A stretch of DNA of 64,000 nt from a virus. The position numbers were made by a program, and so were the translations under genes. The first letter of the stretch is position 1. Each line of letters begins with the position of its first letter. The notes under the pieces were generated by a model. The model did no database searches. It was not told the origin of the DNA and saw only the letters and a program-made list of their open reading frames with translations. Shown here one piece after another: positions 1-64,000 of this stretch. The DNA is taken from the IMG/VR virus record IMGVR_UViG_3300031992_000005, positions 160,001 through 224,000 of that record; one strand, written 5' to 3'.

Positions 1-120
1 GACGAACTTCTCGCCAGTGGATTTAATACGAGACAGACTGATGTAAGACCAGCAAACAGTATTAATACTGCTTTGCAACTTGTAGCTGTAATATTCCAAC
101 TTCAGAGTTTACAGCAATTT
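1..120 (+). CDS. nrdD: anaerobic ribonucleoside-triphosphate reductase NrdD, exon a (5' end outside window)
   Basis: Frame 1 is open from the window edge (...INTALQLVAVIFQLQSLQQFG). It continues as GVSASHLDWTLVPYVKKSF at 387 once 121..386 is removed. Confidence 0.75.
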
Positions 121-386
121 GGTAGGCAAAACTGCCTGTTAAGCCCTTTCCACTAATCAGTGGGGTATAGATGTAATCTATGCTAACGATGAAGCCTAAG
201 TGTTCAGTGATGCGACATAAGGTAATATCGTGGGAATGTAATTTAATAAAATTACAAGCCTGTATCGACTATCTGCGGATCGGCAGAGTAAGGCAACTAT
301 TGATACGTTGTTTGAAATGGGCTTTGCTAGATTTATTAAGTCTAGTTAAGATATAGTCAGTGCATATAGAAATATATGATAAAACG
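121..386 (+). mobile_element. group I intron, ORF-less (nrdD intron 1)
   Basis: The 5' exon ends in U. It has gtatcgactat (P7 5' strand) and aagatatagtcagtgc (classic S element GATATAGTC). The P9 hairpin is catata-gaaa-tatatg and the terminal G is at 386. Confidence 0.65.
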
Positions 387-658
387 GGTGTATCGGCATC
401 ACACCTCGATTGGACTCTTGTTCCATACGTTAAGAAATCGTTTTATAAGCATTTCAAGACAGGAGCAGAATTCATTGAAGGAGTAACAATTCCTATTGAG
501 GAATTTAACGATAAAATGTCGCTCGATGATGAGAAGTATAAGTCGAGCGGAAAAGTTTATACATTTGCTATTAAGCAGACAGAGAAAGAACTAAAGCAAG
601 CAGTGGAGGGAATGTATCATAATCTCAATACACTCCAATCACGTAGTGGGAACCAATT
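387..658 (+). CDS. nrdD: NrdD exon b
   Basis: Reads GVSASHLDWTLVPYVKKSF...MYHNLNTLQSRSGNQ(L). ORF 360..662 runs into a stop just past the junction. Confidence 0.75.
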
Positions 659-1830
659 ATAACTTGCTGATTATCAGCTAGTTACGAAAGTAGCGAAATA
701 TTGATTGGCTATGTAGAAATACATTGAAATAATCGGGGCAAAATCGGTGAACCCTAAATTTTAAATTGTAAAAATTAATTCATTTCACTTTAATAGAAAT
801 TATTATATGGGTAAAAGAGTAAAAATCACAGAAGAATTAAAAAAAGATATTATAAATTTTTATCGCAGTAAGCCAATGTCATTTCTTACAGTAAGCGAAA
901 AATACGGTTTATGTTTGCCAACAATAAGTAAGATTTTAAAAGACGAAGAAAGATACAAGAAAGCGTCTATTTTTAATCCAGACTTTGATGAAGCGTATTT
1001 TGAAAATATTGATACAGAAGCAAAGGCATACTTTTTTGGATTAATAATTGCTGACGGTAATGTTTTTATCGACGAAAAAAATAAAAAAGCGAATAGGCAA
1101 GCAGTTATATCAATAATGCTAAATTCAAGTGATGAATATATACTAGAGCGCTTTAAAAACGAGGTAAAAACAAATACTATTGTTGGACATGATGGTAGAG
1201 GGTGTTCACAAATAGCGGTTAGAAGTAATAAAATGTCAAAAGACTTGGAAAAATATGGTGTTGTGCCAAGAAAAAGTTTTATAACTTATTTACCACAAAT
1301 AGATAAAGAGTTAATGCCGCATTTAATAAGGGGCATAATGGATGGAGACGGCAGTATAAATGCCCATTTAATTAAAAGTGGTAGATTTTTACATTCGATT
1401 GCATTTTGTGGAACTCATAGATTAATGTCTGAAATATCTGATTTTATATATTCTAATGCGAATTTGAATACAAAACCCAAAGTGTATGATTATAAAACTA
1501 GAACACTTAGTGAAATTGCTGTAAGAGGTATCGATGATATGTTTAAACTTGGGGAATTTATTTATAACAATTCAACCATATACTTAAACAGAAAAAGAGA
1601 AACTTATAATATGTTTTTAGAACATTACAATTTTTAAAACAAGGGAATACCGAGGTAATTTCTGAGATTGCGAAAGGCTCAGAAATACCGTAGAGCGTAG
1701 GAGGTGAATAAATATAATCCTCCCAAGAGTGTCCCCCCTTAGCGAGTAAAGTCGAAGGTGAAAATGTACGCCGACCTTATGGGAAACCATAAGAACTATG
1801 GGATAAAAAGCCTGTAGGATAACATAAGTG
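659..1830 (+). mobile_element. group I-like intron carrying a LAGLIDADG homing endonuclease gene (nrdD intron 2)
   Basis: P1 is AAUU/GAUU with U.G at 658. The 3' module ctatgggataaaaagcctgtaggataacataagtg ends in G at 1830. The same 5' (ggggcaaaatcggtgaa) and 3' modules recur in two polA introns. Confidence 0.7.
807..1637 (+). CDS. LAGLIDADG-family homing endonuclease (intron-encoded)
   Basis: Two LAGLIDADG-type motifs, FFGLIIADGNV and LIRGIMDGDGSI. The ORF lies wholly inside the intron. Confidence 0.85.
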   Translation: MGKRVKITEELKKDIINFYRSKPMSFLTVSEKYGLCLPTISKILKDEERYKKASIFNPDFDEAYFENIDTEAKAYFFGLIIADGNVFIDEKNKKANRQAVISIMLNSSDEYILERFKNEVKTNTIVGHDGRGCSQIAVRSNKMSKDLEKYGVVPRKSFITYLPQIDKELMPHLIRGIMDGDGSINAHLIKSGRFLHSIAFCGTHRLMSEISDFIYSNANLNTKPKVYDYKTRTLSEIAVRGIDDMFKLGEFIYNNSTIYLNRKRETYNMFLEHYNF

Positions 1831-1951
1831 GCCATTTACATCTATCAATTACGGTACATGTACGTCCGTAGAAGGTAGAATGGTGATAAAAGCCTTGCTT
1901 GAAGGTTCGATTAATGGTGTGGGTAAATTTCATAGAACATCCATATTCCCT
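1831..1951 (+). CDS. nrdD: NrdD exon c
   Basis: Reads (L)PFTSINYGTCTSVEGRMVIKALLEGSINGVGKFHRTSIFP, containing the NrdD PF(S/T)SINYG block. It is absent from the ORF track because it is short. Confidence 0.75.
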
Positions 1952-2266
1952 AAAAGTACCATTGGGGAAATAAAACAAGGTGAACTGTCAGAGACAGGTG
2001 TGGAAGTAGAATATAGTAGGAAATGACTATTGAGATACTTTTGCTAACAGGGGAAATCTAAACTTTAAATTAAAGCACGACAATCCTGTGCCAAGTTCTT
2101 TTATAGAAAAGGTCAAACGACTATCCTATGACGTTATTTAACTGAGGAGTAGGTCTATAGCGATATAGTTCCGAAGTGCCTTGTACTACTGAAGAGTAGT
2201 AATGATATAGTCTAATCCGGCTTCCTAGTAAGCGTTAAAGTATTGCGAAAGCAACGGTATATAATG
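1952..2266 (+). mobile_element. group I intron, ORF-less (nrdD intron 3)
   Basis: P1 is UCCCU/GGGGA with U.G at 1951. It has aacgactatcctatgacg ... aatgatatagtctaatcc and terminal G at 2266. The core is nearly the same as polA intron 59638..59932. Confidence 0.7.
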
Positions 2267-2449
2267 TGTGGAATTTTCCAGTATATGAAGGGTGTTAATG
2301 ATAAGCCTGGAACGCCAAATTATGATATGTATAAACTTGCATTAGAGTCAACAGCAAAACGTTTGTATCCAAATTATGCGAACGTTGACTGGAGTGGGAA
2401 TGCTGGATATGATAGAAATGATCCAAAAACTTACTTCAGCACGATGGGT
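2267..2449 (+). CDS. nrdD: NrdD exon d
   Basis: Reads CGIFQYMKGVNDKPGTPNYDMYKLALESTAKRLYPNYANVDW...YFSTMG. The N-terminal MRKQRYIM of ORF 2243..2452 is intron read-through. Confidence 0.75.
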
Positions 2450-2703
2450 TAGTGTAAATGTAGCTCATCTAAAATCTCTTGAACCGTGCCAACGGGTGTC
2501 CAGAAATGGGCTAACTGCCAGGCCCTAAAGTTTTAGGGTGAAGCAGTGCTAAGCTTAGAAGAATTTCTAAGAAAGTGTATCGACTATTGGTGATGAATGT
2601 AGCCAAGTAGGGGAGGAGATAGGCACCTCTTCGAAGCGGGAGACTTCTCAGGAAAATGAGAAGAAGATATAGTCAGTGCCTTTGGTAACAAAGGGTTAAC
2701 ATG
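2450..2703 (+). mobile_element. group I intron, ORF-less (nrdD intron 4)
   Basis: P1 is AUGGGU/GCUCAU with U.G at 2449. It has gtatcgactat ... aagatatagtcagtgc, P9 cctttg-gtaa-caaagg and terminal G at 2703. Confidence 0.7.
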
Positions 2704-4493: not shown

Positions 4494-6134
4494 ATGATTA
4501 TACAGAGTAAGTATACAAAGATATTCCATTCAAAGGATTTAACTCGTCAGAAGTATGATGAGTTAAATGACTTTGCTGTGCTTATTCAAAACCATAAAAA
4601 CACCGTGTCACAATACGTTAATGATAACATTCTTCATTTCTTGGAATACAATAAGTTCCAATTCCTTAAGGTAATGAGAGAACGTTTCAAAGAAGTTATC
4701 CCAAGTTCATTTGATGCACAACTTTATACACAAGTGTTCACTTGTTATCAGAATAAATTCGATGCAATACAACGTAAACTTGTCTTTGAAATCGTTACAT
4801 TTAAAGGATTTGAGTTTTATAAACGTGATACCAAGAAACATAAGGAAGGTGACTTGAAAAAAGTAGTTTTTGATAAGAAACAAACACCATTATCTAACTG
4901 TCTTACTTATCTTGCGAGATACAGTAATGAGAATACAATAGACTACATCAATGACAATATAAGCAAGTGTGACGAGAAGAAACGTGAGTTCTATAACAAC
5001 ATACTAAGATGTTGTGATAAATTCGGATTTGAACGTCTCTACAATCTTGCTTTGTCAAAAAGAAAACGTGTTGTCAAGCATTATTCTGAATATCCTATTG
5101 AGTTCAAGTCATTAACGTTCAGTGGTAGGTGTAGGAAGACAAGGATAATAGACTACAACAGTAGGTTTGGTTCAGTAATCAATTCATTCGTAAGTCTCAG
5201 TGGAATTGGTAGGAAATCATTTGATGTACCAGTTACCTTTAATAAAGGTTGGCATGGAAGTATGAAGGATTACAGAAAGAAAAATAACGATTATGAATAC
5301 ACGCTTACATTTAATGAAAAGAATCACCAAGTGAATATTCATCTGTGTAAAGATGGAGAAAGGTATATACCACAAGTACATGGTGAAACAATAGGCATTG
5401 ATGTTAATTGCAAACATAATTTGTTCAGTTTGTCAGATGAAACCACTTATGACTATGATAGAAAACTTGTTAATGACTTCTGTAAACTATCTCTTGAAAT
5501 AGATAAATTGAAAGAAAAAGATAAAAAATATAAGGTTGGTAAACGTAAACAGCAGAAACTTGATACTCTCAAATCCAAAATGATTAAGTCTGAGCAGCAA
5601 CTTATTGCTAATATGTGTAAGGTATTACATTCACAAGGTGTGGGGCATATTGTAATGGAAGACCTTGATAATGGATTTGGCAAATGCTATGTTAAAGATA
5701 AGGATAATGAGAATATAAATTACAACAGAAAGGTTAAATTCCTTGGCTTGAGTAGTCTTAAACAAGAAGTTGAGCGTATTGCAAAGAAATATGATATTGC
5801 GGTTTCAACAGTTCAAGCAAGTTATACATCGAAGATGTGTCCTATGTGTGGATGTATTGAGGACGAAAACAGACCAAACCAAGAAACATTTGAATGTGTT
5901 GAATGTGGACATAAAGATAATGCAGACTTTAATGCTGCAAAGAACATAAGGAACAGAGTGCTTGTAATCGTGTTACGAGATTTGCTCTTAAAACAAAAGG
6001 ATAATGGTGCTTTTGAGCCTAAGAAACTTAAACGTGAGAAGGTAAAGGAGGTATTGTTATCGTTTCGAAGAAGCCTACAAAATGTAGGAAGTGAATGTAC
6101 AGAAAGTAGTGTGACTACTTTTGACTATGTTTAA
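4494..6134 (+). CDS. tnpB: TnpB-like (IS200/IS605 OrfB / Cas12-ancestor) RNA-guided endonuclease, no tnpA nearby
   Basis: RuvC-I is IGIDVN, RuvC-II is HIVMEDL, the Zn ribbon is CPMCG...CVECGH and RuvC-III is NADFNAAKNI. All catalytic positions are present. Confidence 0.85.
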   Translation: MIIQSKYTKIFHSKDLTRQKYDELNDFAVLIQNHKNTVSQYVNDNILHFLEYNKFQFLKVMRERFKEVIPSSFDAQLYTQVFTCYQNKFDAIQRKLVFEIVTFKGFEFYKRDTKKHKEGDLKKVVFDKKQTPLSNCLTYLARYSNENTIDYINDNISKCDEKKREFYNNILRCCDKFGFERLYNLALSKRKRVVKHYSEYPIEFKSLTFSGRCRKTRIIDYNSRFGSVINSFVSLSGIGRKSFDVPVTFNKGWHGSMKDYRKKNNDYEYTLTFNEKNHQVNIHLCKDGERYIPQVHGETIGIDVNCKHNLFSLSDETTYDYDRKLVNDFCKLSLEIDKLKEKDKKYKVGKRKQQKLDTLKSKMIKSEQQLIANMCKVLHSQGVGHIVMEDLDNGFGKCYVKDKDNENINYNRKVKFLGLSSLKQEVERIAKKYDIAVSTVQASYTSKMCPMCGCIEDENRPNQETFECVECGHKDNADFNAAKNIRNRVLVIVLRDLLLKQKDNGAFEPKKLKREKVKEVLLSFRRSLQNVGSECTESSVTTFDYV

Positions 6135-9244: not shown

Positions 9245-9958
9245 AGTGTACTAATTGGTACGTAATTTTGAGAATTGCTGAAACCTGAATAAATCCGGGA
9301 ACCAGCAGCTAGTTTTGGGTTTCTACAAAATAATGCCTATGATAGAAGAAGAAAAGCCCTGGTCTAGGAGTGAACATATGAAATACCTACACAGTCAAGG
9401 AAGATATCTTGGCACAAGTAAGATAGGTCAATGGAATTCTAGTCCAGAGAAACATCTTAGGATGATATCAATTCGTGAAAAGAATCTCTTAGATAAATCG
9501 TCTCATGGTTATGGGTCGGAATATCATATGAGGTTAGCAAATAGAACCCTATTACATAATAAATTTCAAGGAGAGGAAGGTTTTCTTTATTTCTTAGATT
9601 TTCCCGCTAGTGTTAAAGTGGGATTTTCAAAAGATTGGGAAAGAAGGATTAACCAACAATTGCCAAAGCAGATATTAGGTGGGAAAGTTATAGCGATTAT
9701 ATCAGGTCCCACTAATGACCTGGCTGATCTGGAATTTGATACTTTTGTCAAGTTCCAGAAATATACTAAATTAGATTCCACCGGAACTAGGTATACTGAA
9801 TTCTTGGAGAAAAGAAAAAAATCAGAAATCTATAAGTTCTTGAAAGAGTCTGTTAAAAATAATAAGAACCTTAAATTTGAAATTCAAAACTAGTTCAACG
9901 ACTATGTGCAAAAGAAAAAGATATAGTCTGTCCTAGGTCGAAAGACTTAGGGGTAACG
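9245..9958 (+). mobile_element. group I intron with endonuclease-like ORF (beta-prime intron 1)
   Basis: P1 is GUGCU/GGUAC with U.G at 9244. It has aagatatagtctgtcc, P9 cctaggtc-gaaa-gacttagg and terminal G at 9958. Confidence 0.7.
9315..9893 (+). CDS. intron-encoded protein, T5orf172/GIY-YIG-superfamily-like putative homing endonuclease
   Basis: GFLYFLDF...VKVGFSKDWERRI ... YTEFL resembles the T5orf172 pattern (GxVYIL...KIGxT...R...EWF). It lies inside the intron. Confidence 0.5.
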   Translation: MGFYKIMPMIEEEKPWSRSEHMKYLHSQGRYLGTSKIGQWNSSPEKHLRMISIREKNLLDKSSHGYGSEYHMRLANRTLLHNKFQGEEGFLYFLDFPASVKVGFSKDWERRINQQLPKQILGGKVIAIISGPTNDLADLEFDTFVKFQKYTKLDSTGTRYTEFLEKRKKSEIYKFLKESVKNNKNLKFEIQN

Positions 9959-10978
9959 AGTAACACGACAGCCAGTACTTCATGAATATAATATTTACTG
10001 TCAGAAGATTAGGATAGTTGATCAAGATGCAGTAGCTTATCCAATTGAGCTCTGTGGACCACTTAACGCTGACTTTGATGGTGATACTGTATCTATGATC
10101 CTGGTTCCTGATGAAGTAGCTGAGGATACCTATAAAAAGATGAGTCCTAGGTATAACAAGATTTATAAGAAAAATCTTGAAAATGTCTTTGTATTCAATC
10201 ATGAAACTCTTAATGGTCTAGCCAATGCTACTGAATATACTCCTGACGATCCTAATGATCTGAAGGAACCTAAGTATTATTACACTGATTATACAGAACT
10301 CCTAAAAGATGTTGAGGTTAATCATAAGATTAATTATGGTACACCTATTGTCTTTACAGGAAAAATAGGGGATGTAGATTATCAGAGTAAGATTACTACA
10401 TACGGACGTCTTAGAATATCTAAGATAATTGATGCAGACCTTGATGAGATCCGAGTAGAAGGTAAGCCTATTATGGAAAATCCGTATGAAAGACTAAACG
10501 CGAAGACAGCAGGTAAACTGATGTCTTATCTCTATGGTTTCGATAACTGGGTAGAGAAGGCAAATGAATTACAAAAATTTGCCCTAAAGGTTGTAACTAA
10601 GACAGGTGTAGTAACATTTGACTATTCAACCTTGTATGCTGATACTGATAATGAAACTTATAGAGATATTAGAAAAATTGCTGATTCGGAAGATCTTACA
10701 GATAAGCAGAAACTTACCTTAATTACAGAGAGATATGGAAAATATCTCAAAGGCCTTGAGAGAGATTTTAGTTCCGACCTGAAGAAAGAACTAGATAGAT
10801 CTGCTAGGGTAAAGTTAAATTCCATTATTGCTATTAATGCACCGTCATTGATTATCAATGGTCCGGAAGAAAAGGTAGTAGTAACTCATGGAAATCTTTT
10901 GGAAGGTTTTAGTGAAAAGGAATACTTGTATCATGCTATCGAAAATAGATCCCTCCTGACGATCAAGCAGAGTGGCGT
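9959..10978 (+). CDS. RNAP beta-prime-like subunit, exon 2 (catalytic loop)
   Basis: Reads VTRQPVLHEYNIYCQKIRIVDQDAVAYPIELCGPLNADFDGDTVSM. The absolutely conserved NADFDGD is at about 10065..10085. Confidence 0.8.
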
Positions 10979-11344
10979 CAATAGTTTTTATCGGTGCGTC
11001 ACTATAAAAACCACAACTATTGCTGGAAAATAATAAAATAAATTATAATCAGCAACTTATTATGAAAGAAAAAGTATTAAATTGGGTAGAACTACTAACT
11101 GCAGTGGCAGCTGTTATTGGTGGTATTGGAGAGATCCTCAAGCAATTTGGAATTGCCTCTGACAAAGTGAAGGAGACAATTAAAGCTAAGAGGGAAGAGG
11201 CTTTTATGAATAATAAGCCCAACGACTATTGTTGTGGCACTCAGGAAGAACAGAGTGAGAAACCTGAGTGATGGTATAGTCTATCCTGGATTGAAAGATT
11301 CAGGGCGGCGTGGGTTGAAAACTAACTCACGTCTGGCCGATTGG
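10979..11344 (+). mobile_element. group I intron (beta-prime intron 2)
   Basis: P1 is GCGU/GUGC with U.G at 10978. It has cgactat ... ggtatagtctatcc and P9 cctggatt-gaaa-gattcagg. The 3' site was chosen so that ...KQSGV|GYLTRQ is restored, so the boundary is +/-3 nt. Confidence 0.6.
11020..11271 (+). CDS. possible small intron-internal ORF (one hydrophobic segment)
   Basis: An 83-aa ORF inside the 366-nt intron, overlapping the P7 5' strand. It may be fortuitous. Confidence 0.25.
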   Translation: MLENNKINYNQQLIMKEKVLNWVELLTAVAAVIGGIGEILKQFGIASDKVKETIKAKREEAFMNNKPNDYCCGTQEEQSEKPE

Positions 11345-12545
11345 TGGTTATTTAACTAGACAGATCTCATTCTTGTTGAATAATTACACTTATAGAGAAA
11401 AGGGAGAAGATAAGGAAAATCCTGGTCTTCTTATTCCTAGATACGTGGCTACTGGTAGAACTTCTCCTACAGGAAAGGTATATCCAGCAGTTACAAAGAA
11501 AAATGAAGATGAACTAGTACCTGTTAGATCTATTGTAACTAAATGTAAAGGAAACTTATATGAAGTTACTCCAGATCTCTTGGGCAAAGCTTTCTTAAAG
11601 GCTAGTTTTCCTGATGGATCTGCAATCGGTCCTAGTGTTGGTACTAGTTTTACAGAAAGTACTACTCAAGGTATCCTTGCTCTTAAACATGGTGGTCATG
11701 AAAGAAAGCAAGCAGTTGAAGGAAACTTATATGCACCTAAAGATTGCGAGCTTATTGAAGATGGTAAGTTCTTGAAACTAAAAGTAAGAGGTAACAAAGA
11801 ATTAGTCTATCCTAAACCTAGTAATTGGGTTGGACTTGGTAAAACGGAGTTCAAGGAAGGTGAATTGGTCGGTACTGCTTACAATACTTCTTCGCCAATT
11901 ATCATGCTTAATTCTGTCTTAAAGCTTATGCAGGCTAAGGGCGGAACTGGTAGTAAATACTTTGAAAAGGATAACGTTATTATATCAGACTGTTATGCTT
12001 ATGAAGAAGGTGTAATAAACTACGTTGAGGATAAGCATGGAAGAATGAATGTAACTATTGGAAATAGATACTATGCTTATAATCCAGAGGCTATGTATTA
12101 TTATCCTTCAGGAACTACTATTAAGAAGTTTCAGAGATTTTGTTCTGGTGTAGTTAATATGAGACAGGTTTCTTCTGACTTAGGTGGTGATCTTAGCTCA
12201 ATCTTTAATATTTTCCGAAGACAATATTATACATTGGTTAAGGATGATTTTATTGAAAATGGAGTTGGACCACATGATATGCCAGAGGAAATTGTAGAGA
12301 TTGTATTTGCTGGACTTACTAATATTGTTAGAACAGATAAGGGCGATGTAACTGAAGTAGAGTTTCAGGGAACTCAGACGTCTATTACAAACAATAAGAG
12401 TAAATCATTCTTTACTGCTCTGTCATTCGGTTGGTCAGAAAGTGCAGTCGATAAGGCTATTAGAGGAGAACTTAATCTTGAAAAGGATACCATGACTGAA
12501 ACAGTACTTGGTTTGTTATTAAATGATAATTTAGATAAAGTTTAG
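11345..12545 (+). CDS. RNAP beta-prime-like subunit, exon 3
   Basis: Begins (V)GYLTRQISFLL (cf. SGYLTRRLVDV) and stays open to the stop at 12545. Confidence 0.75.
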
Positions 12546-13149: not shown

Positions 13150-16100
13150 TGAGTAATTTTAATCAATTTTTCAAAAATCAAGGGGCAAAGACGATGGTAG
13201 AGCGTTTCTTTACCGGAATAGATGAATATACGCCAAATAAGAAACTAACAAACCTAACTTGGCATCTAGCCGAAGAAGATAAACGCCCAGCTTCATATTT
13301 CATAGAAAATGGATTAACTGCAACTCATAAGGTAATCCTGGAGTATACAATTAACTATGATGATGAAATTCGTACATCTGAGTTTGAAGTCCCTAGAGAA
13401 ATAGACGGTGTATTTATTATAGAAGGAGCTTATCGTATTGCTACTAATAACCTAGGAAAAGACTATGATTGTAGAATCAATATGTCAGGTACTGGTAGAC
13501 AATACATTAACTTTGACTATGGTAGAGAATATGACATCAAGACTGGTATTCTTAAAATAAAGAGGGTAAATCCTGACTTAGGTTTACCTGAAAAAGTAAG
13601 AGAATATAAGTTAGATGAAATAGATGAACTCAGTGGTATTGAAAAAGAAGTTCTAAAACTTTCTGAAAGACAGAGAAAGAAGTTTCAGGTAAAGCTTGAT
13701 ATTGATTATTCCCCGGATTATATTTCAAAGAAGCTTATCGAGGATTGTATTGCTTATGGCGATGATAGAATTCGAGATCTTATTATTGATAAGAAGATTG
13801 ATTCTGTTCCCGTTGGTTTTATGAAGTATATCTTCAATGGAGGTAATAATAAGAACTTCTATGGTACAAAATCCCAACTAAGAAACTATTGGAGTAAGCA
13901 AGGTAAGTTACAGGACCAGATTAATGTACTTACAAATCTTTGTGCTAGATACTGGAAAGGTAGTAGTTCAAAGAAGAAAGGAGAGGATAATGATGTTCAA
14001 GTTTCTCCTGGTGTAAATGCCATGAACCTGGAAAGTATCACGAATAAAATCTATATTCCTGAAACTGTAGCTTATAATACTACCTTTAGTGACTTGATTT
14101 GTGTTGGTGCTACACCAAATAATGGTAACATCGGTAAGCAGAATGCCTTGACTGTATCTACCCATATTACAGATGAGGATGTTCTCTTTGACTGTTATAC
14201 TACCAAGTTTCAAAAGATCACTATCCCATACTTGGATTATCTTAATCATAAGGTATGTGCTAGTGAGTACGTTGACTATGATACTAATACCGTTAAACCC
14301 GATAAGGATGGTAAGGTAGAAGTTAAGCATAGAATGCGTAGAAAGATGGTACCAGTGGAGGAAATTGAGTTAATTGACCTTCACCCAGACTATCGTTTAT
14401 CAGAAGAAGTAAGACGTATACCGTTTGTGAATTTTACTGACTCTGTTCGTATCTGTATGGGTAGTGGTATGTTAAAGCAAGCTATTCCACTTGTTAATGC
14501 AGAAAGACCTCTAGTAGATACAGGTAACTATGAAGAGCTTCATACAAACGTCTTGAATGAACGTTTTAAAGAAGAGTCTGGTGTAGTTAAGGATGTAAAT
14601 GAAGAGGGAGTATTAATAGAACTTCCTAATAAGGATGAAATTCTTATTCCAAGAAAAACTGCTATTCAGAGTATAAATGATGTTGACGTCTTTACTGAGC
14701 CTAAAGTTAAGAAAGGCCAAAAGGTAAAGAAGGGTGATGTTATTACTGGAGCAGTTGGCTTGGAAGAAGATACCTATAAAATGGGTATTAATGCTCTCGT
14801 CTTATTCCATGCAATGTTTGGTGATGTCAATGAAGATGCCTTAGTAGTTAGTGAGTCTTTCTCAAAGAAAATGCACTCTTACTCTGTTATCGACCTGATA
14901 TATGAAGTAAGAACTAATGAGGCAATCAAATGGATAGCTCCAATAGGTCAACAGGTAAAGTCTAAAGATCCCGTCATGATGACCTATAAGGCTGTTAAAC
15001 TTGACTTAGTCAATAAGGCCTTGAATGATAAATTAGGTGGTATCTTTGGAGATCAAAAACTAGATCTCTCTGAATATACTATTGAAAGTAACTTGGAAGT
15101 TCCTAATGACATTGATGAAGCTTATGTTAGTGATGTTAGAATTCAGGAAAATTTACACCCTAGAGTTCCTGGTGGTACTAAGAGACCTGACTTAACTTAT
15201 GCTCATACATCAGAGGAGACTATCAAAGATTATAATTTTGATAGAAAAATTATCTATGATAGATATCCAGAATATATTGCAGCAGATAGACTTAAGGATA
15301 TATCATTAGCAGATAAGGATTATAAGATTGTTTATGTAGTTCGTATTAGACTTATTAAGAGAACAAATCTTATGATCGGATCTAAGGTTACCAACCGTTA
15401 TGGTGGTAAGGGTGTCATTTCTAAGATCTTGCCAGATGATAAGATGCCAATCATGGTAGAATCTGCAACTGGTAATAAGAAAGTTGTGGATATTGTCATG
15501 AACCCTTATAGTACAATTAACCGAAAGATTCCTTCTGTTAATATGGAGAGTCTCTTAGGTTCAATTGCGCATAGAATTCATGACATAGTAGATGAGAGGA
15601 AAAATGATAAGAAAAAACAGGAAACTATCATGCCTCTTGTTCAGAAGTATTATCCTGGTCGATTTGATGGAATGACATTAGAGAAGTTCTTGAAGTTACA
15701 TGAAAATAGTAAACTTGAGGACGTATATTACTTCAATGTAGGTAGTTACTCTAGACTTACTCCAAAGCAGATAGATGAATGGGCAAAGGAATTAGGTGTT
15801 ACACCTCAATCAAAGATTCTCATGCCTAGTGATACTATCGCTGACCTTGATGAGCTTAAAGCGAACTTAAGTGAGGAAGAATATAATACCGCCGTTAAGA
15901 ACTTGACAGGTAGATACGTAGAAGTTGAAAAGCCACTTAGTGTTGGTTATATGACTATGGAAGAACTATATCAAATTCCAACTTATAGTGATAAGGTAAC
16001 TTCTAGTATGTTCGGTGTTGATGTTAATGAGTGGGTAGATTCTCCTATTATGGGTAGAGGTGGTTATAGAAAAACTGGTCAGATTATCGGTGAAATGGAG

Positions 16101-56861: not shown

Positions 56862-56938
56862 AGAATTAAAAAAATTAAATATTATTTACAATACAAAAGT
56901 AAGGCATTGAGGGGAGAAAAAAAATACCCCTTCAGAAA

Positions 56939-57369
56939 GGGGATAATGCCTTATATATGTAATTTATATTATCTTTCATACATGTTTACTAAAGGGGATC
57001 GTCCGTGATGGATATATCCCCTCATTTTTTTGTTCAAAAAAAATAGGATCGAGATATACATATTACTATGTATAACCCTGACTGACTATTCTTTTTGAGA
57101 TTTATTATACTCTATATATATCTATTTATAAGGCATTAAGGGGAGAAAAAATACCGCCCCAGAAAGAGAAAAATGCCTTATATATAGAAACAGACGCATA
57201 ATAATTTAATTTCATAATAATAACTAGGGGATCGGTTCGTGATGAATAGATCCTTTTTTTTTCATATCCCTTTAATGCTTTATATATGATCATAAAAAAT
57301 ATTTTTTTAAGTTTGAAAATAATGATTGGAGGATCAGTCCGGGATGGATAGATCCTCTTTTTTTTTTTG
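56939..57369. repeat. four ORF-less mini-cassettes (three on +, one on -)
   Basis: + promoters are at 56939, 57170 and 57267, with family hairpins at 56993-57022, 57226-57255 and 57328-57357 plus T-runs. The - promoter is at 57110-57145, with a hairpin plus U-run at 57036-57075. Confidence 0.55.
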
Positions 57370-57403
57370 TTCAAAAAAAATCCCCCGACACGGGGATTCC
57401 TTT

Positions 57404-57655
57404 TTATACACTTACGTTGAAGCCTAGGATATATTTATAAAATAAATCAGAGATCCTTTCATATATGCTTGGCTTTCCTGTGTAAAATTTTAATACTGAT
57501 CTTCCACTCTTAGTTAGTTTCCATGTTTCACCACTTGGAGAAACTGAAACGCTAATGTAGCCAAGCCTTAGTAATTCATCTACGTCTACTAAGCTTTCAA
57601 TGTCCTTCAATAGGCCTTTAGTTGAACTTAAAGCGTCTTTTAAATTTTTATTCAT
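57404..57655 (-). CDS. hypothetical protein
   Basis: From the ORF track. Its terminator is aatccccgtgtcgggggatt plus a U-run, with the promoter-like cccctcttaatacctt upstream. Confidence 0.55.
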   Translation of the reverse strand: MNKNLKDALSSTKGLLKDIESLVDVDELLRLGYISVSVSPSGETWKLTKSGRSVLKFYTGKPSIYERISDLFYKYILGFNVSV

Positions 57656-57702
57656 AATTGTTAGGTGTTGTGTTTATATACTCTTAAGGTATTAAGAGGG
57701 AA

Positions 57703-57848
57703 GAAAAAAAAAGAGAGGGGAACCCGTTTTAGAGAGTTGACTGATCGTCTGTGCGTCTGTGGGTTCCCCGGAGTGCAGCTGAGCCCGTCCTTTCGATCAT
57801 CGGCGGGGTCCGATCTGCTGCAATTTTCTAAAATCTAATTCCTTTATG
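57703..57848 (-). ncRNA. candidate G+C-rich structured ncRNA of unknown class with own promoter and terminator
   Basis: The - strand promoter CCCCTTAAATCCTTATATATG is at 57851-57871. Stems are TGCAGC/GCTGCA, ATCGG/CCGAT and GGGGAACCC/GGGTTCCCC plus a U-run. It is strikingly GC-rich in an AT-rich context and has no ORF. Confidence 0.5.
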
Positions 57849-57850
57849 TT

Positions 57851-57871
57851 CATATATAAGGATTTAAGGGG
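57851..57871 (-). promoter_or_regulatory. phage promoter-like consensus (- strand)
   Basis: Reverse complement is CCCCTTAAATCCTTATATATG. Confidence 0.5.
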
Positions 57872-57885
57872 ATTTCAGATTCTTC

Positions 57886-58497
57886 AAAAAAAAGAGAGGA
57901 TCTATCCGTCTCGGACCAATCCTCTAAAAATTATTTAACCTAAATATGATTGTTATGAATGTTTTACATATATAAGAGTTTAAGGGGATAAAAAAAAGAG
58001 GATGACCTATCACAGGCGACCCTCTTCTTCAATAACAAAAATTTAAATCTTTAAATCTATGGATATAATATACAACATATATAAGGGTTTAAAGGGATAA
58101 AAAAAAGAGGAGATCTATCCATCTCGGACTGATCTCCACCTGACATCTGAATATACATCATACTAAAATGAGAGTATTACACGTTAATAAGGAATTAAGG
58201 GGATAAAAAAAAAGAGAATCTATCCATCTCGGACTGATCCTCTAATAAGAAACATTCTATTAATTCTTAAACTTTTACATATATAAGAATTTAAGGGGAT
58301 GAAAAAAAAAAAGAGAATCTATCCATCACGAACTGATCCTCTTCAGAGTAAAATAAACATTACACGTACATATATAAGGCATTTAAGGGGTATAAAAAAA
58401 ATGACCGACTCATCACGAGCCAGCCATTGAATAATTTTTGAACTTTTTTTACCCAAGAAAAATAAGTACTTTCATTTATAAGAATTTAAAGGGATTT
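57886..58497 (-). repeat. tandem array of six ORF-less mini-cassettes directly downstream of polA
   Basis: Period is about 100 bp. Promoter motifs are at about 57967, 58073, 58175, 58272, 58363 and 58470. Family hairpins are at 57894-57925, 57998-58027, 58107-58137, 58214-58243, 58313-58344 and 58402-58426, each with a U-run. Confidence 0.6.
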
Positions 58498-58545
58498 GAG
58501 AAAATAGACCAGCCCCACATTAAAGGCTGGCCCACAGAATTAATA

Positions 58546-58935
58546 TTATAGTCGGTGAAACCTAACGGTCACCTTTGATACATCCATCGATATAGAACAA
58601 CCATTTTCTAAGATTGTTCTGTAATATGGATCTTCAATCATCTTCTTTTCTGATACTAGCTCTTCCCTAGTCTTATCACATTCACACCTGATACTAGGGG
58701 AATTCATTAATTTGTCATAAATTAATATAAGATTACTAGCAGGACCAGAAAATTCTATCGTATTTTTGTCTATCTGCGTTAATGGACATGCAGATTCATA
58801 TCCATATCCACACAAAAGATCAAACAGTAACTTTATCTTTGGCCCAATAGTTGCACAATAATCCGTATATTTTTCATCATAATATGCCCTAATATCAAAT
58901 ATGTGATCTATTGGAATAAGATTAGTATTAGAATC
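58546..58935 (-). CDS. polA: family-A DNA polymerase, last exon
   Basis: Begins DSNTNLIPIDHIF..., and joining to ...QPIITVH restores motif C (VHD). The first 4 codons of ORF 58546..58947 are intron. Confidence 0.65.
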   Translation of the reverse strand, partial: DSNTNLIPIDHIFDIRAYYDEKYTDYCATIGPKIKLLFDLLCGYGYESACPLTQIDKNTIEFSGPASNLILIYDKLMNSPSIRCECDKTREELVSEKKMIEDPYYRTILENGCSISMDVSKVTVRFHRL

Positions 58936-59237
58936 CGTTCTCTTCACATAAATTCGCTACATTTATGCCGGGCAATGCCACAGCTAATCATCTCTGATTA
59001 GACGAGACTATATCTTCAGTAAATAATTACTGCCTACTTTTTCGAACACCCATCGCTTGTGCTCTACTCTACTCACTTCTTCAGGTTTCCCCTATGCTTT
59101 CGATAGTCGTTGAATAAGTTTATAACTTACTGCTGATTGACTCTATTCATTGGATTTTTACTTCTATTCGATAGTACCAATGACCTAACAAGTTGTTCCA
59201 GCAATTAAGTAGGTTTATAGTGCACCATAAACTAACA
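58936..59237 (-). mobile_element. group I intron, ORF-less (polA intron 5)
   Basis: P1 is GUGCAU/GUGCAC with U.G at 59238. It has the Q element AATCAGCAG, CGACTATCG ... AAGATATAGTCTCG and terminal G at 58936. It is homologous to the ends of intron 60663..62159. Confidence 0.7.
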
Positions 59238-59637
59238 ATGCACTGTAATAATAGGTTGTAATGGTTGCTTCCAACCATCTTTAATTGATGACCTAATATT
59301 ATTAAAGAATCCACTAGCCATAATTGTACTAGTTCCTCCTTGAATAGGTAAATTTACACCTAATCTTTTGATTCTGGCAATTATATTTTGCGCTTCTTTT
59401 TGATCTTTTGCTTTTGGCAAATATTCATAATACTCCCTTAACCTTAATTTGTCTCCTAACATGGTATTAATGTAACCATCATGATCTAATGGATACTGAC
59501 CCTGAGACTCCACATATTCCCTGAGCTTTGGAAAAGACTTATATAAACTCTGGATAATATTCTCAGCTTCTTCAACAGAACTATCTAGTCGAGCTGCTAA
59601 GGAATTTTTCCCTAAGCCGTACAATACACCCAAGAAT
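59238..59637 (-). CDS. polA: family-A DNA polymerase exon (fingers/motif B)
   Basis: Reads (I)FLGVLYGLGKNSLAARL... and NLPIQGGTSTIMASGF (cf. N.PIQGSAAD), ending ...IITVH. Confidence 0.8.
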
Positions 59638-59932
59638 CATTACTACTCATAATTTCTTATGAGATTAGACTATATCATTATCCGATTATTCGGATAGGTT
59701 GCACTTCGGAATAGAGAATTTCACTCTAAACCTACTCCTCGGTTAAAATTATTTTAACGTCATAGGATAGTCGTTACACTTTCTTAGACTAATCTAAGCT
59801 TAGCACGGTATTGGCATATCTTATTATTAAGACTTAGCTTTCCACCGTTAGCACTAATAAATTAGTACACCCTAGATTTCTAGGTTCACAACCTTTTCAT
59901 TAACTAATTACTTAGTTATGCCACATCTATCT
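59638..59932 (-). mobile_element. group I intron, ORF-less (polA intron 4)
   Basis: P1 is CCAU/GUGG with U.G at 59933. It has AACGACTATCCTATGACG ... AATGATATAGTCTAATC and terminal G at 59638. It is near-identical in core to nrdD intron 3. Confidence 0.7.
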
Positions 59933-60080
59933 ATGGTCTTGAATTTCTTTCTATAAGTCTTTTGTTCTTTTTTACTAAGGTTATTCCAACCTTCTTCACC
60001 TAAATATAGTTTCGAACTATATATGTATATGTCTTCTCCAGCGTTGAACTTACTTATTAGATCAGGATCCAAAGACGCGT
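59933..60080 (-). CDS. polA: family-A DNA polymerase exon
   Basis: Reads (Y)ASLDPDLISKFNAGEDIYIYSSKLYLGEEGWNNLSKKEQKTYRKKFKT(I), cf. Pol I ...S.D..L..AF..G.DIH..TA......R..AK..NFG. Confidence 0.7.
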
Positions 60081-60350: not shown

Positions 60351-60647
60351 CAGATTGTTACCCTATAGGCTTTTTATCCTATAGTTCTATGGATTCATTT
60401 TATCCATAGCTCGGCATATATTTTCATCCTAGATAACTAGGATGACGGACACTCGTGGAGAGATTATATTTATTCACTCTCTATGCTCTACACTACTTAC
60501 TTAACCTTTCGCAATTTAAATAAGTTAGCACGGTATTGGCATCTCAGCTTTCACCGTTTTTGCCCGTTTATTATCACTTACATTACTATAAGTGACGGCT
60601 AAATTTTAACCTCGGCACTACTACATTGTGTTCAGGAGGCACGTTAC
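60351..60647 (-). mobile_element. group I-like intron, ORF-less (polA intron 2, same family as nrdD intron 2)
   Basis: P1 is GGAGAU/GCCUCC with U.G at 60648. It has GGGCAAAAACGGTGAAAGCTGAGATGCCAATACCGTGCTAAC. The 3' module CTATAGGATAAAAAGCCTATAGGGTAACAATCTG ends in G at 60351. Confidence 0.6.
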
Positions 60648-60662
60648 ATCTCCCGGTTCTCA
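60648..60662 (-). CDS. polA: inferred 15-nt polA micro-exon
   Basis: TGAGAACCGGGAGAT supplies (I)ENRE(I). Its Glu aligns with the conserved motif-A Glu (DYSQIELR). Confidence 0.4.
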
Positions 60663-62159
60663 CTTAGCTAAAACTAAGATGAACTCCTACATATCTCTAT
60701 GCAGATCAGACTATATCTTAATCTCATTTCTGAGATTCTTACCGTTTCCACTTAACGATTTCAAGTGTACTCCCATTACTGGGATAGTCGTTGGGGTTTA
60801 AGAATTTAATCAGTTAGTCGGGCTGATTTTCTTTTATTTTTTGAATAAGGACATTACTGTCTGTAATTACTTCAGTGAAATATCCATATTTTTCGTAAAT
60901 TTTTATTTCATTAGTGAAATATAATAATGGTATATTATTTTTCTTAGCATAATCGTACTTCAGATGATCCCTTTTTATAGCAATTTCTGAATAACGTTTA
61001 TCGTTAGGATCAAAATGTTGACACCCATGATACTCTACTAAGATATTATATTCTGGTAAATAAAAGTCAAACCTAAGATGTGATATATTCTTTAAATCTG
61101 GGTAAGTTTTCTCAGATGTAAATTCAATATTATTTCCCGTAAATAGGTCTGCCAAAAATAGTTCCCCATTAGAGTTAATGAGCGGGAATATGCTATCTTT
61201 ATCATCATCAGATAATAATAAGAACCTATAATAGCAATTACGAAATCTTCTATAAAAATCCTTCCTAGATAGGATATTATTGTCAGCAATAAATACCTTA
61301 AAATCTTCTACCGTATTAATATTAGAGTAATCTCTATTATTGTTTGGTAATAGACTTTCTTTCTCCTCTTTAGATAAGAGTCTACTAAATCTGCAATATA
61401 CTTGCTCAAATCTACGACAAAGATCTATTCTGGAGGTTATATTATTTTCTTGAATAAATGAACGAAAATCCTCATATGTATTTATATACGAATAATCTTT
61501 TAGCATACTAGGGAGAATTCTATTTTGATCTTCACTACTCAATTTAATAAACTTATTATATCCTCCTCGAAATCTTTTTTGAAAATCATAACGGCCTACA
61601 ATTTCGTATGTTTTAATGAATTTCCTAAAATCATCCTCAGTATTCAAAGTAGAGTAATCTGCCTTTTTTATAGTTCCTTTATAAGGTAAAATAGTTTCTT
61701 GCTCTTCCTTTGATAGAAAGTTTAAGAACCTAAGATAAGCCCCAGGATATTCAGTATGTAATGTTTTTCGAGAGTGAATATTATTAGTTTTAATAAACCT
61801 TTTAAAGTCGTTTGCAGTATTGAGATTAGAATAATTACCTAAGTTCGAAGGCAGTAATTTTTCTTGTTCATCATTACTTAATTTCTTGAAGCAATTATAA
61901 ACCTTTCTATACTCCTCTCTCAGCCTAGACCTCTTCTCAATACCATTATCTTTTATAAATTTTTTTATTTCCTCATAATCCATTTTTTTTTTAAATTTTA
62001 ATTTTTTTCGTTCTTCTTAAACCTGCTGATTAACTCTATTCCCTAGATTGTTACTGCCGTGACTAAATCGGCTAGTACTAGAGACCTAACAAGTCTTTCC
62101 AGCATTTAGTAAGTTTGTTTTTCATAAGGTCACCCTTATGTGACACTAGTTTCTAGTTA
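60663..62159 (-). mobile_element. group I intron with homing endonuclease gene (polA intron 1)
   Basis: P1 is GACAU/AGUGUC with U.G at 62160. It has the Q element TTAATCAGCAGG, CGACTATCC ... AAGATATAGTCTGATC and P9 CTGCATA-GAGA-TATGTAG. The terminal G is at 60663. Confidence 0.7.
60814..61983 (-). CDS. intron-encoded homing endonuclease, PD-(D/E)xK / Vsr-like (EDxHD-type) nuclease domain with 5 N-terminal tandem repeats
   Basis: It has five repeats of about 55 aa (N.x.DF+.FI..NNI.SR...). The C-terminus is ELFLADLF...LRFDFYLPEYNILVEYHGCQHF...KRDHLKYDYAKKNNIPLLYF. Confidence 0.65.
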   Translation of the reverse strand: MDYEEIKKFIKDNGIEKRSRLREEYRKVYNCFKKLSNDEQEKLLPSNLGNYSNLNTANDFKRFIKTNNIHSRKTLHTEYPGAYLRFLNFLSKEEQETILPYKGTIKKADYSTLNTEDDFRKFIKTYEIVGRYDFQKRFRGGYNKFIKLSSEDQNRILPSMLKDYSYINTYEDFRSFIQENNITSRIDLCRRFEQVYCRFSRLLSKEEKESLLPNNNRDYSNINTVEDFKVFIADNNILSRKDFYRRFRNCYYRFLLLSDDDKDSIFPLINSNGELFLADLFTGNNIEFTSEKTYPDLKNISHLRFDFYLPEYNILVEYHGCQHFDPNDKRYSEIAIKRDHLKYDYAKKNNIPLLYFTNEIKIYEKYGYFTEVITDSNVLIQKIKENQPD

Positions 62160-64000
62160 ATGTCAAAATATGTTAGTAATTGGTCATCCCCACCATATAT
62201 GATATTTCCATTTTTGTTCCGAATTGGAGCAGGAATTAAGCAATTTTTGACAGGGCTATGTGAGGGAATCGTATGAAAACTTGATGACCAGCGTTTACTT
62301 GATTTTTTGAGTACTTCGTATGGAGTAAAATTCTTCTTTACTGCTCCTGGTTCATCCGGATCTGCATCTCTAATTGGAATATGATGCTCATCTTCAATTA
62401 CCCATTTTGCCCTCTTATTAAACATTCCATCTGGACCTACATACACACTTAACATTTTCGCATGTTTCTTATATATGAGGTAGTTGAGTGTGAATTTTCT
62501 CATAAAGTAGAAATCATTACTGAGATCTACCTCAGGATCAAATGGGCTTTCATAATTTAAGTAATCACCCTGATACTCTGGAAAAAGTTGTGTTTGTGTG
62601 TTAAATCCAAGAAAATCTGTCCAAATTTCCTTTACTTTATCTGCGGTTTGATATAAAACTGTCTCTACACCTTTCACACTAACTTTTTTTCCAAGTTTAG
62701 GGCTACCATAAAATTCGAATGCTAGGTCAAATACTTTCTTCGGGTATAATGGGCTTTCGTATTCGCCATTACTGTCATAATACTTTTTCCATTCATCTAA
62801 CATTTCTTGATAACCTTCATCTATATCAGTAATACCTCTACTTGAATAGAATTTTGTTGTCTCAGGTAACTGCTGGATACTTTCTGACATGGCAGCTAAG
62901 AAAGCAGTTTTTCCTTTAAGTCCAGGAATGATAGGATTAACCATCATATCATATACGATTTTATCATTCTGTTCTGGACTAAGACACATGAAATAATTAT
63001 CAGATAGAAACTTAGAATACTCCAAGAGATCCATTTTCTTACCAAAGATATATATTTTCTCTGGGATATTATGAATATCCTTAAGCTGTTTTTTATTTAT
63101 TTTTTCCAGCTCAGTATATATCTTTCGATAATACATGTATTTCTCAAGTTCTATATGCTTCTTATTAATCTTTCCCTCTGAATCAAATTTAAGACTATCA
63201 ATTCCGAAGAGATGTATTGTTTTTTCTGCCAGGACCCCTAAGAATTTCTTTTTCCTAATAATACCTTCGTCGATCTTACCCTTTAACTTAACTTCGCTTG
63301 CAGCTTGTCTAACAAAATCTACGAATTTTTCTCCAAAGTCCTGTCCATATTTCATAACAAGTCCTCCCTCATTTAATCCAGTTTCTGTTGAATCTAGGTA
63401 ATCGAGATTACTTGTTAAGATATATTTTAAGATTTCAATTATATTACCTTGAAAAAAGTTTCCTTCTTCCAATAGTTTTACAGCAATTGGCTTATATCTC
63501 TTTATATTAGTAGCCAAGGATTGATGTTTTTGCATCTTTATCCAACAAAGAGCTCTAGTTGCCCAAGTACTAGACCAAGCCATCATCTCCTTACAATACT
63601 TTTCAAATCTAAGTCTGAATGGCTCATCTATATAGTGGCCATGTGACATAAGTCTTGCGCCAAGTCTCAGGTTATCTAAGAAAACGTTGAAACACTCTTC
63701 TGTATACTCAGACTTTTTCTTAAGATAAATCATAAGAGTATAGAATGAGTCAAGGCAGCAATACTTTCCTAAGATTTCACTTGGGATAGGCATGAATTGA
63801 TTTCCCCAATACTCTAAGATCAGTTCCTTAAATTCATCTTCATATCCAGGATATCTCTTACAAATTTCTCCCCATTCAGGAGTATTTGTAAAGTTTTCTG
63901 GGGTTACTTTTAATTCTAGGTGAATGTCCTTCTTAAGTTTACCAACTTCCTCCAATAGCATGTGTTCAATTAAGTCACTAAGTCTATCGAAGTCAGAATC
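62160..64000 (-). CDS. polA: family-A DNA polymerase, upstream exon (5' end outside window)
   Basis: The frame is open to the window edge (DSDFDRLSDLIEHMLLEEV...). It ends ...GGDDQLLTYFD(I) at the start of motif A. Confidence 0.75.

Follow-up and report, generated by a model that had tools for sequence, protein, structure and literature searches.

Why should introns that interrupt two unrelated genes of one virus look like kin? The question is raised by a stretch of viral DNA of 64,000 nucleotides (nt), positions 160,001 to 224,000 of IMG/VR record IMGVR_UViG_3300031992_000005, the whole of which is called the window below. Its left end holds the 3′ two-thirds of nrdD, the gene for an anaerobic ribonucleotide reductase (+ strand), followed by nrdG, and its right end holds polA, a family-A DNA polymerase gene (- strand); four group I introns lie in the former and five in the latter. 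A sequence-only reading of the window had noticed that some of these introns share sequence across the two genes and had ascribed this to intron spread within the genome. The sharing itself stands: seven of the nine introns fall into three sequence families, well above chance. As for its origin, the answer that we regard as probable is that nrdD and polA introns resemble one another as members of shared, old lineages, and not as products of recent copying within this genome.

Family A unites nrdD intron 2 with polA introns 2 and 3, family B joins nrdD intron 3 to polA intron 4, and family C comprises the 5′ parts of polA introns 1 and 5. These introns and three of their structural elements are as follows (ORF, open reading frame; aa, amino acids):

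659..1830, + strand: nrdD intron 2; family A; long P1 loop; LAGLIDADG ORF at 807-1637 in the P5 loop
1796..1817, + strand: ATAAAAAG-capped hairpin in nrdD intron 2, a P9.x element of family A (alignment columns 225-246)
60351..60608, - strand: polA intron 2; family A, ORF-less; Rfam 38 bits
60081..60336, - strand: polA intron 3; family A, ORF-less; Rfam 17.2 bits
1952..2266, + strand: nrdD intron 3; family B, ORF-less; Rfam RF00028 39.8 bits, E 7e-8
2127..2145, + strand: hairpin extension TATGACGTTATTTAACTGA in nrdD intron 3, common only to polA intron 4
59638..59932, - strand: polA intron 4; family B, ORF-less; Rfam 49.6 bits
59739..59764, - strand: hairpin extension TATGACGTTAAAATAATTTTAACCGA in polA intron 4, common only to nrdD intron 3
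60624..62159, - strand: polA intron 1; 5′ part in family C; 389-aa homing-endonuclease ORF at 60814-61983; Rfam 38 bits, 3′ core
58936..59237, - strand: polA intron 5; 5′ part in family C, ORF-less; Rfam 63 bits

Similarity was measured by all-against-all blastn, dinucleotide-shuffle z scores and nhmmer profiles, with RNAalifold for structure, and the family pairs gave these values:

family A, polA intron 2 and polA intron 3: 73.6% over 261 nt; blastn E 2e-36; shuffle z 55
family A, nrdD intron 2 and polA intron 2: 73.4% over 188 nt; blastn E 1e-26; shuffle z 43
family A, nrdD intron 2 and polA intron 3: 62% over 198 nt; shuffle z 13
family B, nrdD intron 3 and polA intron 4: 70.5% over 193 nt; blastn E 1e-21; shuffle z 34
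family C, 5′ parts of polA intron 1 and polA intron 5: 72.6% over 95 nt; blastn E 2e-11; shuffle z 19

Intron pairs that do not share a family stay at z scores of 12 or below, mostly below 6, and nhmmer profiles run over the window recover exactly three copies of family A (E-values 3.6e-47, 5.3e-46 and 2.8e-34) and two of family B. The claim that unrelated host genes hold common intron families is thus confirmed by blastn, by shuffle z scores of 13-55 and by nhmmer, as is the 5′ likeness of polA introns 1 and 5 by blastn, and the similarity reaches beyond the universal group I core.

Does such likeness mean that one gene supplied the other? For family A, the evidence comes largely from other phages. 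A sensitive search with polA intron 2 matched 39 GenBank phage records, distributed over phages of Bacillus, Staphylococcus, Clostridioides and Lactobacillus, Leptolyngbya (cyanobacterial) phages and crAss-like phages, and the introns found there are 69-79% identical to polA intron 2 over up to 98% of the intron. By GenBank annotation, their host genes encode a RecD-like helicase (Bacillus phage PJN02), a DNA polymerase (Leptolyngbya phage JY46), the terL product (Staphylococcus phage SA2), an ATPase and a helicase (crAss-like phages) and a primase-polymerase (Dulem virus 41); the JY46 intron carries a LAGLIDADG ORF homologous to that of nrdD intron 2. Members from phages of other phyla equal or surpass nrdD intron 2 (73%) in identity to polA intron 2. 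Family A is, on this distribution, a cosmopolitan phage intron lineage and, unlike the introns of phage T4, it is without the classical R/S core sequence. Its motifs are CAAAAnCGGTGAA, AATACCG, GTGAAAATrTAyGC, GATAAAAAG and GATAACAA, and a 3′ module (GTGAAAATGTAyGCC, the ATAAAAAG-capped hairpin and GGATAACAAAAyTG) is kept in all members. The 5′ and 3′ modules that had been picked out in nrdD intron 2 and the polA introns are therefore present as described, but they belong to the whole family and are not specific to this genome. The covariation reported for the capped hairpin holds as well: across 16 family A introns, compensatory changes occur in 32 of the 38 pairs predicted by RNAalifold, P7 included, and all seven pairs of the hairpin are kept through such changes.

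Intron likeness within one genome is no evidence of copying there unless introns at the same sites elsewhere are compared. For this purpose IMG/VR supplied 42 loci that encode an orthologous polymerase, the contigs reaching 400 kb in length, and 80 loci whose NrdD is 70-79% identical to that of the window. Two of the polymerase loci recur below. L003, the closest of the divergent relatives (72% polymerase identity), is interrupted by introns at polA sites 1 and 4 and by a mini-insertion of ~138 nt at site 5; L004 (58% polymerase identity) is interrupted by introns at polA sites 1, 2 and 4. Within family A, polA intron 2 is 77.6% identical to its site-2 ortholog in L004, and nrdD intron 2 is 83.5-84.7% identical to its same-site ortholog in contig L067. 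In neighbour-joining trees the latter two pair with 98% bootstrap support, apart from polA introns 2 and 3, and next to this pair come an intron of a Staphylococcus phage and another copy from L067 (84%); polA introns 2 and 3 and the L004 site-2 intron make up a separate, weak group (51%). With foreign introns as close, same-site orthologs closer and the trees keeping the two genes apart, the family A resemblance between nrdD and polA is therefore best described as membership of a shared lineage.

Contig L067 (15 kb) is another genome with the family A lineage in two genes. It has family A introns at 810-1009 and 5575-5824, the second lying in another gene ~3 kb downstream of nrdD and being 78-80% identical to nrdD intron 2.

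Could the introns nonetheless have been transposed recently between nrdD and polA, and among polA sites, either by reverse splicing, with reverse transcription and recombination to follow, or through ectopic cleavage by intron endonucleases? We judge this quite unlikely. Family similarities far over chance, by blastn and by shuffling, are what such transposition would leave behind, but the partners within the genome are only 70-74% identical (69-73% within family A), less than same-site orthologs in phages with 58-72% polymerase identity, and neither nrdD intron 2 nor nrdD intron 3 groups with its polA partners in the trees. No reverse transcriptase was noticed, though no search aimed at one was made, and reverse-splicing mobility of group I introns is without direct experimental support (review PMC3984707).

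The insertion sites bear on both proposed routes. The exons end in CCAATT, GAGGT and GGGGT before the members of family A, in TTCCCT and GACCAT before those of family B, and in TGACAT and GTGCAT before those of family C. A comparison of these sites for likeness of endonuclease targets, which had been suggested along with the proposal of spread, finds at most 3 nt in common within any family; the guide sequences differ, each fitting its own site, and the flanks of family members, compared over +/-15 nt, show no similarity. The 4-6 shared guide-pairing nt expected of reverse splicing are lacking, and so are the similar targets of ~14-40 bp expected of ectopic homing. There is therefore no support for a common endonuclease target or for a common target of the internal guide sequences.

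What does site occupancy in the relatives add? About half of the 42 polymerase loci are intron-free in the C-terminal half, and most of the 80 nrdD loci have no interruption. Every site thus has alleles that lack the intron, and the proposed survey for intron-minus alleles in related phages has found what it sought. Seven sites are each occupied in at least one relative: nrdD intron 1 has same-site orthologs in L092, L100, L112 and L113 (75% identical), the site of nrdD intron 4 is commonly filled, also in Thomasclavelia phage TR-TP2, polA intron 1 has same-site orthologs in L003 and L004, and those of polA intron 5 are 70-72% identical to it. The two remaining sites, nrdD site 3 (empty in 80 of 80 loci) and polA site 3 (empty in 42 of 42), are filled in the window phage only, as would be expected of recent transposition into them. 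Also in keeping with transposition, 14 nt separate polA introns 2 and 3, GGU precedes each of them and their guides look alike (TTAGCC and TTGCCC), although the agreement between the two sites extends to only 3 nt. Copies within the genome are, however, not mutual closest relatives; only polA introns 2 and 3 cluster, together with L004 site 2, at the 51% mentioned above. The idea of intragenomic spread hence loses ground to the trees, to the closer same-site orthologs and to the cosmopolitan nature of family A, while the empty sites, the grouping of polA intron 3 and a hairpin peculiar to family B, to which we now turn, still speak for it.

In family B, polA intron 4 has same-site orthologs in L003 (78.7%) and L004 (74.7%), with which it forms a clade of 100% bootstrap support. 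A long branch separates nrdD intron 3 from this clade; it groups weakly with introns of other viral contigs, one of these neighbours being an intron at a different site in a distant nrdD of a 378-kb phage. The strings reported as shared by nrdD intron 3 and polA intron 4 reflect a real similarity (70.5%), but part of them are the universal R and S core elements, ACGACTA (ACGACUA) and AAGAUAUAGUC / GATATAGTC, or motifs of the class at large: ACGACTATCC...GGAGTAGG has more than 120 matches in IMG/VR, and GGAGTAGG and TTCCGAAGTGC are conserved across the wider class. Between two of these motifs, however, lies a hairpin extension, TATGACGTTA...TTTAACYGA, that is found in nrdD intron 3 and polA intron 4 only; searches of IMG/VR and the JGI metagenomes for this hairpin returned zero matches. 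The two introns match each other best in ~45 columns only (38/48, against 21-23/41 for other relatives). Outside this ~45-nt patch, nrdD intron 3 is as close or closer to introns of other phages, namely L231 and L182, both of which its 5′ half and P2.1 resemble, and its 3′ tail is like that of L182 (32/52, against 7-9/45). A derivation of the whole of nrdD intron 3 from polA intron 4 is therefore rejected, since beyond ~45 nt it is no closer to polA intron 4 than to L231, L182 and L003, and the same figures count against its recent transposition, for which the unique hairpin would otherwise argue.

Might the introns then be mosaics, made by non-allelic recombination among co-resident introns and not by movement of whole introns? 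Strings such as ACGACTATCC and GGAGTAGG would serve as short homology patches, and modules would be swapped within the genome or between co-infecting phages. The patchwork of nrdD intron 3, with a 5′ half and P2.1 like L231 and L182, a tail like L182 and a hairpin like polA intron 4, fits this idea, as does the restriction of the likeness between polA introns 1 and 5 to their 5′ 95 nt. As a general account it is highly doubtful, given that just one short patch is peculiar to this genome and that the 5′ part of family C, being clade-wide (see below), is therefore inherited and no recent swap. Extended hairpins moreover occur at the position in question in about one third of the variants of the wider class, so that partial convergence is possible. 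For the hairpin alone, a short gene-conversion patch between co-resident introns would be the simplest reading.

For family C, the 5′ part of polA intron 1 is 66-76% identical to the site-5 introns of other phages, and that of polA intron 5 has more in common with the L003 site-1 intron (76.8%) than with polA intron 1 of its own genome. The likeness is common to the whole phage clade: across other phages, introns at site 1 and introns at site 5 match one another at 66-77%. The idea that it is peculiar to this genome is therefore rejected, and the relationship between the site-1 and site-5 introns is therefore older than the genome itself.

Two observations concern polA site 5. Motif C of the polymerase reads VHDS throughout the phage clade (58936-59240 in the window, and relatives), whereas family-A DNA polymerases usually have VHDE, and the site-5 intron falls exactly between H and D of VHDS. 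At the same site, shifted by one codon, L003 has its ~138-nt insertion (14224-14361), with P4/P6-like and P7-like segments (AATTGCTGG...CAGCAA and GACTG...CAGTC); this could represent a group I-like intron reduced to a minimum.

How, then, could these introns have come to be where they are? Under the reading that we favour, membership of shared old lineages, they would derive from at least three old and widely spread phage intron lineages. Rare ectopic insertions, accumulating over long periods of evolution, would have taken each lineage into many different genes of many phages. An established intron would persist at its site by vertical descent and also by homing, with co-conversion from an endonuclease-bearing intron in the same gene. 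Each gene has one such intron, nrdD intron 2 (LAGLIDADG) and polA intron 1 (389-aa endonuclease), and the ORF-less introns sit 15-577 nt of exon sequence away from it; established homing biology makes it reasonable to suppose that co-conversion during homing would maintain them. Two local events may plausibly be superimposed on this background, namely insertion of a site-2-lineage paralog 14 nt downstream, as polA intron 3, and the exchange of a peripheral hairpin between nrdD intron 3 and polA intron 4 by short-patch gene conversion. That the genome does record these two rare events, a copy of the polA site-2 intron at the next GGU and an nrdD/polA hairpin conversion, is a tentative and rather unlikely proposition: the site-2 intron would have been reverse-spliced or otherwise moved within the same transcript or gene, yielding polA intron 3 and the 14-nt exon, and the hairpin would have moved non-allelically from an intron of one gene to an intron of the other, across the ~60 kb between nrdD and polA. 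Should this prove true, a phage would offer natural evidence that group I introns residing in one genome seed nearby sites and trade modules.

Several points weigh against shared old lineages as the full explanation. The trees are neighbour-joining trees of 180-280 columns of short RNAs, with several weak nodes (51-67%), and that these particular introns splice is something we infer. No relative falls between 72% and 98% polymerase identity, and the gains of nrdD intron 3 and polA intron 3 are therefore undatable. The sites of these same two introns are seen nowhere else, and each intron has a link within the genome, the hairpin shared with polA intron 4 in the former and the weak grouping with polA intron 2 and L004 site 2 in the latter; with the hairpin unique to its pair, some exchange within the genome probably happened.

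All of the above rests on where the introns begin and end. For nrdD, tblastn with NrdD of TR-TP2 (71% identical) yields five exons and four insertions; the window NrdD is nearest to those of phages of Firmicutes. For polA, a 602-aa N-terminal polymerase ORF has ~190 homologs by database search, most of which end just past YFDI, and a few longer ones read YFDISSAEVKSAGYASGDPDLI...FKTIFLGVLYGLG...IVVH. Mapping these longer homologs onto the window, together with the conserved start of the last exon (DSNTN), gives five insertions, and the 3′ boundary of polA intron 5 is fixed because conservation of the last exon begins at DSNTN. The exons, and the two introns outside families A-C, are:

1..123, + strand: nrdD exon; gene starts upstream of the window; tblastn identity to TR-TP2 NrdD 88%
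124..386, + strand: nrdD intron 1; group I, ORF-less, outside families A-C; exon mapping
387..658, + strand: nrdD exon; homology mapping
1831..1951, + strand: nrdD exon; tblastn mapping
2267..2449, + strand: nrdD exon; tblastn mapping
2450..2703, + strand: nrdD intron 4; group I, ORF-less, outside families A-C; Rfam 35.2 bits
2704..3642, + strand: last nrdD exon, glycyl-radical domain; Pfam NRDD 6.8e-80
62160..64000, - strand: polA exon 1; N-terminal part runs past the window end
60609..60623, - strand: 15-nt micro-exon TAGTAGTGCCGAGGT, coding for (I)SSAEV; homologs read YFDISSAEVKSAGYAS; also in L004
60337..60350, - strand: 14-nt micro-exon TAAGAGCGCGGGGT, coding for KSAG(Y); homolog mapping
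59933..60080, - strand: polA exon; homolog mapping
59238..59637, - strand: polA exon, end of motif B to VH of motif C; Pfam DNA_pol_A 5.5e-14
58546..58935, - strand: last polA exon; homolog mapping

This map reproduces exactly the coordinates first proposed for nrdD introns 2 and 3 and polA introns 3 and 4. The proposed extent of polA intron 2, 60351-60647, has to be corrected: its 5′ end was set 39 nt too far, 60609-60623 being an exon of the conserved YFDISSAEVKSAGYAS motif and 60624-60647 belonging to polA intron 1. Three group I introns accordingly break 29 nt of coding sequence for polymerase motif A, leaving exons of 15 and 14 nt; the introns around the 14-nt exon (polA introns 2 and 3) are 73.6% identical, and the 15-nt exon is also kept in the divergent relative L004. 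We know of no phage precedent for three introns in 29 nt of coding sequence, and none for 15- and 14-nt exons between three introns was met in the literature searched. Outside the families, nrdD intron 4 (2546-2587) and polA intron 4 (59767-59806) have in common a 42-nt stretch that is 86% identical (z 12) in otherwise unrelated introns; this may be another small shared module.

Repeated introns and minute exons could in principle be artefacts of metagenome misassembly. The probability of this is practically negligible, and we regard it as ruled out: contigs assembled from five independent samples, each with all five introns, agree at 99.8-100% over the 4 kb of polA that hold the introns, the 15-nt micro-exon recurs in L004, and the spliced products are continuous and match homologs. 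The polA arrangement, nearly identical in five samples, is therefore real and stable; differences in intron presence or absence were sought among these near-identical strains and none was found. Samples in which the phage occurs include ENA ERZ27257202 and ERZ27257205, JGI 3300032030, SRR9006729 and SRR9006805.

Are all nine insertions group I introns? In every case the nucleotide before the insertion is U and its own last nucleotide is G (omega-G), and there is a P1 helix of 3-7 exon base pairs in which a U.G pair marks the 5′ splice site. Eight of the nine introns have their guide sequence in the first 20 nt; in nrdD intron 2 it occupies 44-50. With the introns removed, nrdD (546 aa) and polA give stop-free products that are collinear with homologs over every junction. 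The Rfam group I model RF00028 matches seven of the nine introns; polA intron 5, at 63 bits, exceeds its gathering score of 50, and the other six, at 17.2-49.6 bits, fall under it (E-values 1e-10 to 0.6). No RF00028 match was obtained in the Rfam scan for nrdD introns 1 and 2. The first of these has an R-like element CGACTA and an S element AAGATATAGTC; the second, minus its 830-nt LAGLIDADG ORF, aligns along its full length with polA introns 2 and 3, and its P7 pair covaries with that of polA intron 2 (GCGUA/UACGC against GCAUA/UAUGC). The ORF of nrdD intron 2 matches Pfam LAGLIDADG (weakly) and PHROG 4645 endonuclease (1.7e-43), and that of polA intron 1 matches PHROG 9084 homing endonuclease (5e-19). 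The ribozymes of nrdD and polA presumably self-splice.

The source of the window is a jumbo phage that is related, by its polymerase, to the published Jug (jumbo gut) phages. Its genome assembles to ~354 kb, and IMG/VR contigs of 250-400 kb encode proteins with 51-58% identity to the polymerase. A megablast of the nrdD and polA regions against GenBank phages gave almost no matches, and the N-terminal part of the polymerase has no Pfam match and no phage tblastn match.

Elsewhere in the window, an RNA polymerase beta′-like gene (+ strand; NADFDGD motif at ~10067, weak Pfam RNA_pol_Rpb1_2 match) contains two intron-like insertions with approximate bounds, ~9255-9985 and ~11034-11372, both outside families A, B and C. 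The former has a 192-aa ORF without family match and R and S core elements only ~13 nt apart, so that P8 seems to be missing; the latter has an 83-aa ORF. They came from a motif search, the Rfam scan of the middle 54 kb having found tRNAs only, and with nine introns mapped they make the previous count of eleven plausible. A match to GATATAGTC at 51271 was dismissed as a sign of an intron, since it lies within coding sequence. Directly 3′ of nrdG, positions 4494-6134 (+ strand) hold a 546-aa TnpB/Cas12f-like ORF (Pfam Cas12f1-like_TNB 1e-16, OrfB_IS605); the 350 nt upstream of it show no group I match and thus no sign of an IStron. Positions 56880-58510 are poor in ORFs, and a 37-nt motif, ACATATATAAGnnTTTAAGGGGATAAAAAAAA, occurs there nine times, with seven copies spaced at 91-116 nt between 57850 and 58508 and several copies followed by a GAGGATC...GATCCTC inverted repeat. 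The array looks like a series of promoter/terminator units, or of genes for small RNAs, on the - strand.

What do these findings mean in practice? Annotation would miscall nrdD and polA as fragments, and the 15- and 14-nt exons within polymerase motif A would escape any gene caller. The cluster of three introns possibly offers a natural test of how tandem ribozymes of 73% identity avoid exon skipping.

That one phage may have related group I introns in several of its genes is in itself textbook matter, as in td, nrdB and nrdD of T4 and in Twort. The homologous introns in different nucleotide-metabolism genes of T4 were reportedly described in work of the Shub and Belfort laboratories in the 1980s-90s. 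The window phage is like T4 in having homologous introns in several genes, with nrdD a host gene in both, but T4 has one intron per gene whereas the window phage has 4-5 per gene, from several lineages. In Staphylococcus phage Twort, Landthaler and Shub are said to have found three introns in orf142 and two in nrdE, with exon skipping reported between tandem introns. Several related group I introns in a single phage gene are thus common to Twort and the window phage; the latter differs in its three polA introns within 29 nt, with exons of 15 and 14 nt. Among the T4 introns of td, nrdB and nrdD (sunY), some have homing endonucleases and some are immobile (PMC1865063).

In fungal rDNA, related group I introns at different sites have been read as the outcome of spread by reverse splicing (PMC1299323). 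In both cases ectopic transposition is argued for circumstantially, from the kinship of introns at heterologous sites, but the fungal argument needs different-site introns to be sisters, which in the window phage is seen, weakly, only for polA introns 2 and 3. Bastillevirinae phages have 45 introns in nine clades and four gene families, with intron clade decoupled from nuclease type and some clades common to T4-like and Twort-like phages (PMC11878797); they are another phage group, with fewer introns per gene than the window phage. Closest are the Jug phages (Sci Adv 2026), described, in the parts of that report drawn on here, as having genomes of 360-402 kb with 18.5 group I introns on average, nrdD in up to four fragments, split terL and DNA polymerase genes, and many HNH, PD-(D/E)XK, GIY-YIG and LAGLIDADG endonucleases, and the splicing of some of these related introns was seen in metatranscriptomes (PMC12880540). 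The same parts contain no analysis of intron relatedness, micro-exons or site occupancy (PMC12880540). The intron-rich, split nrdD and polymerase genes are shared with the window phage, which is a more distant relative. Cosmopolitan phage intron lineages, intron-rich jumbo gut phages, and homing with rare ectopic insertion are all established already; set beside them, what is mildly unusual in the window phage is its 15- and 14-nt exons, a phage-unique site beside a homologous intron and a hairpin patch shared between two genes.

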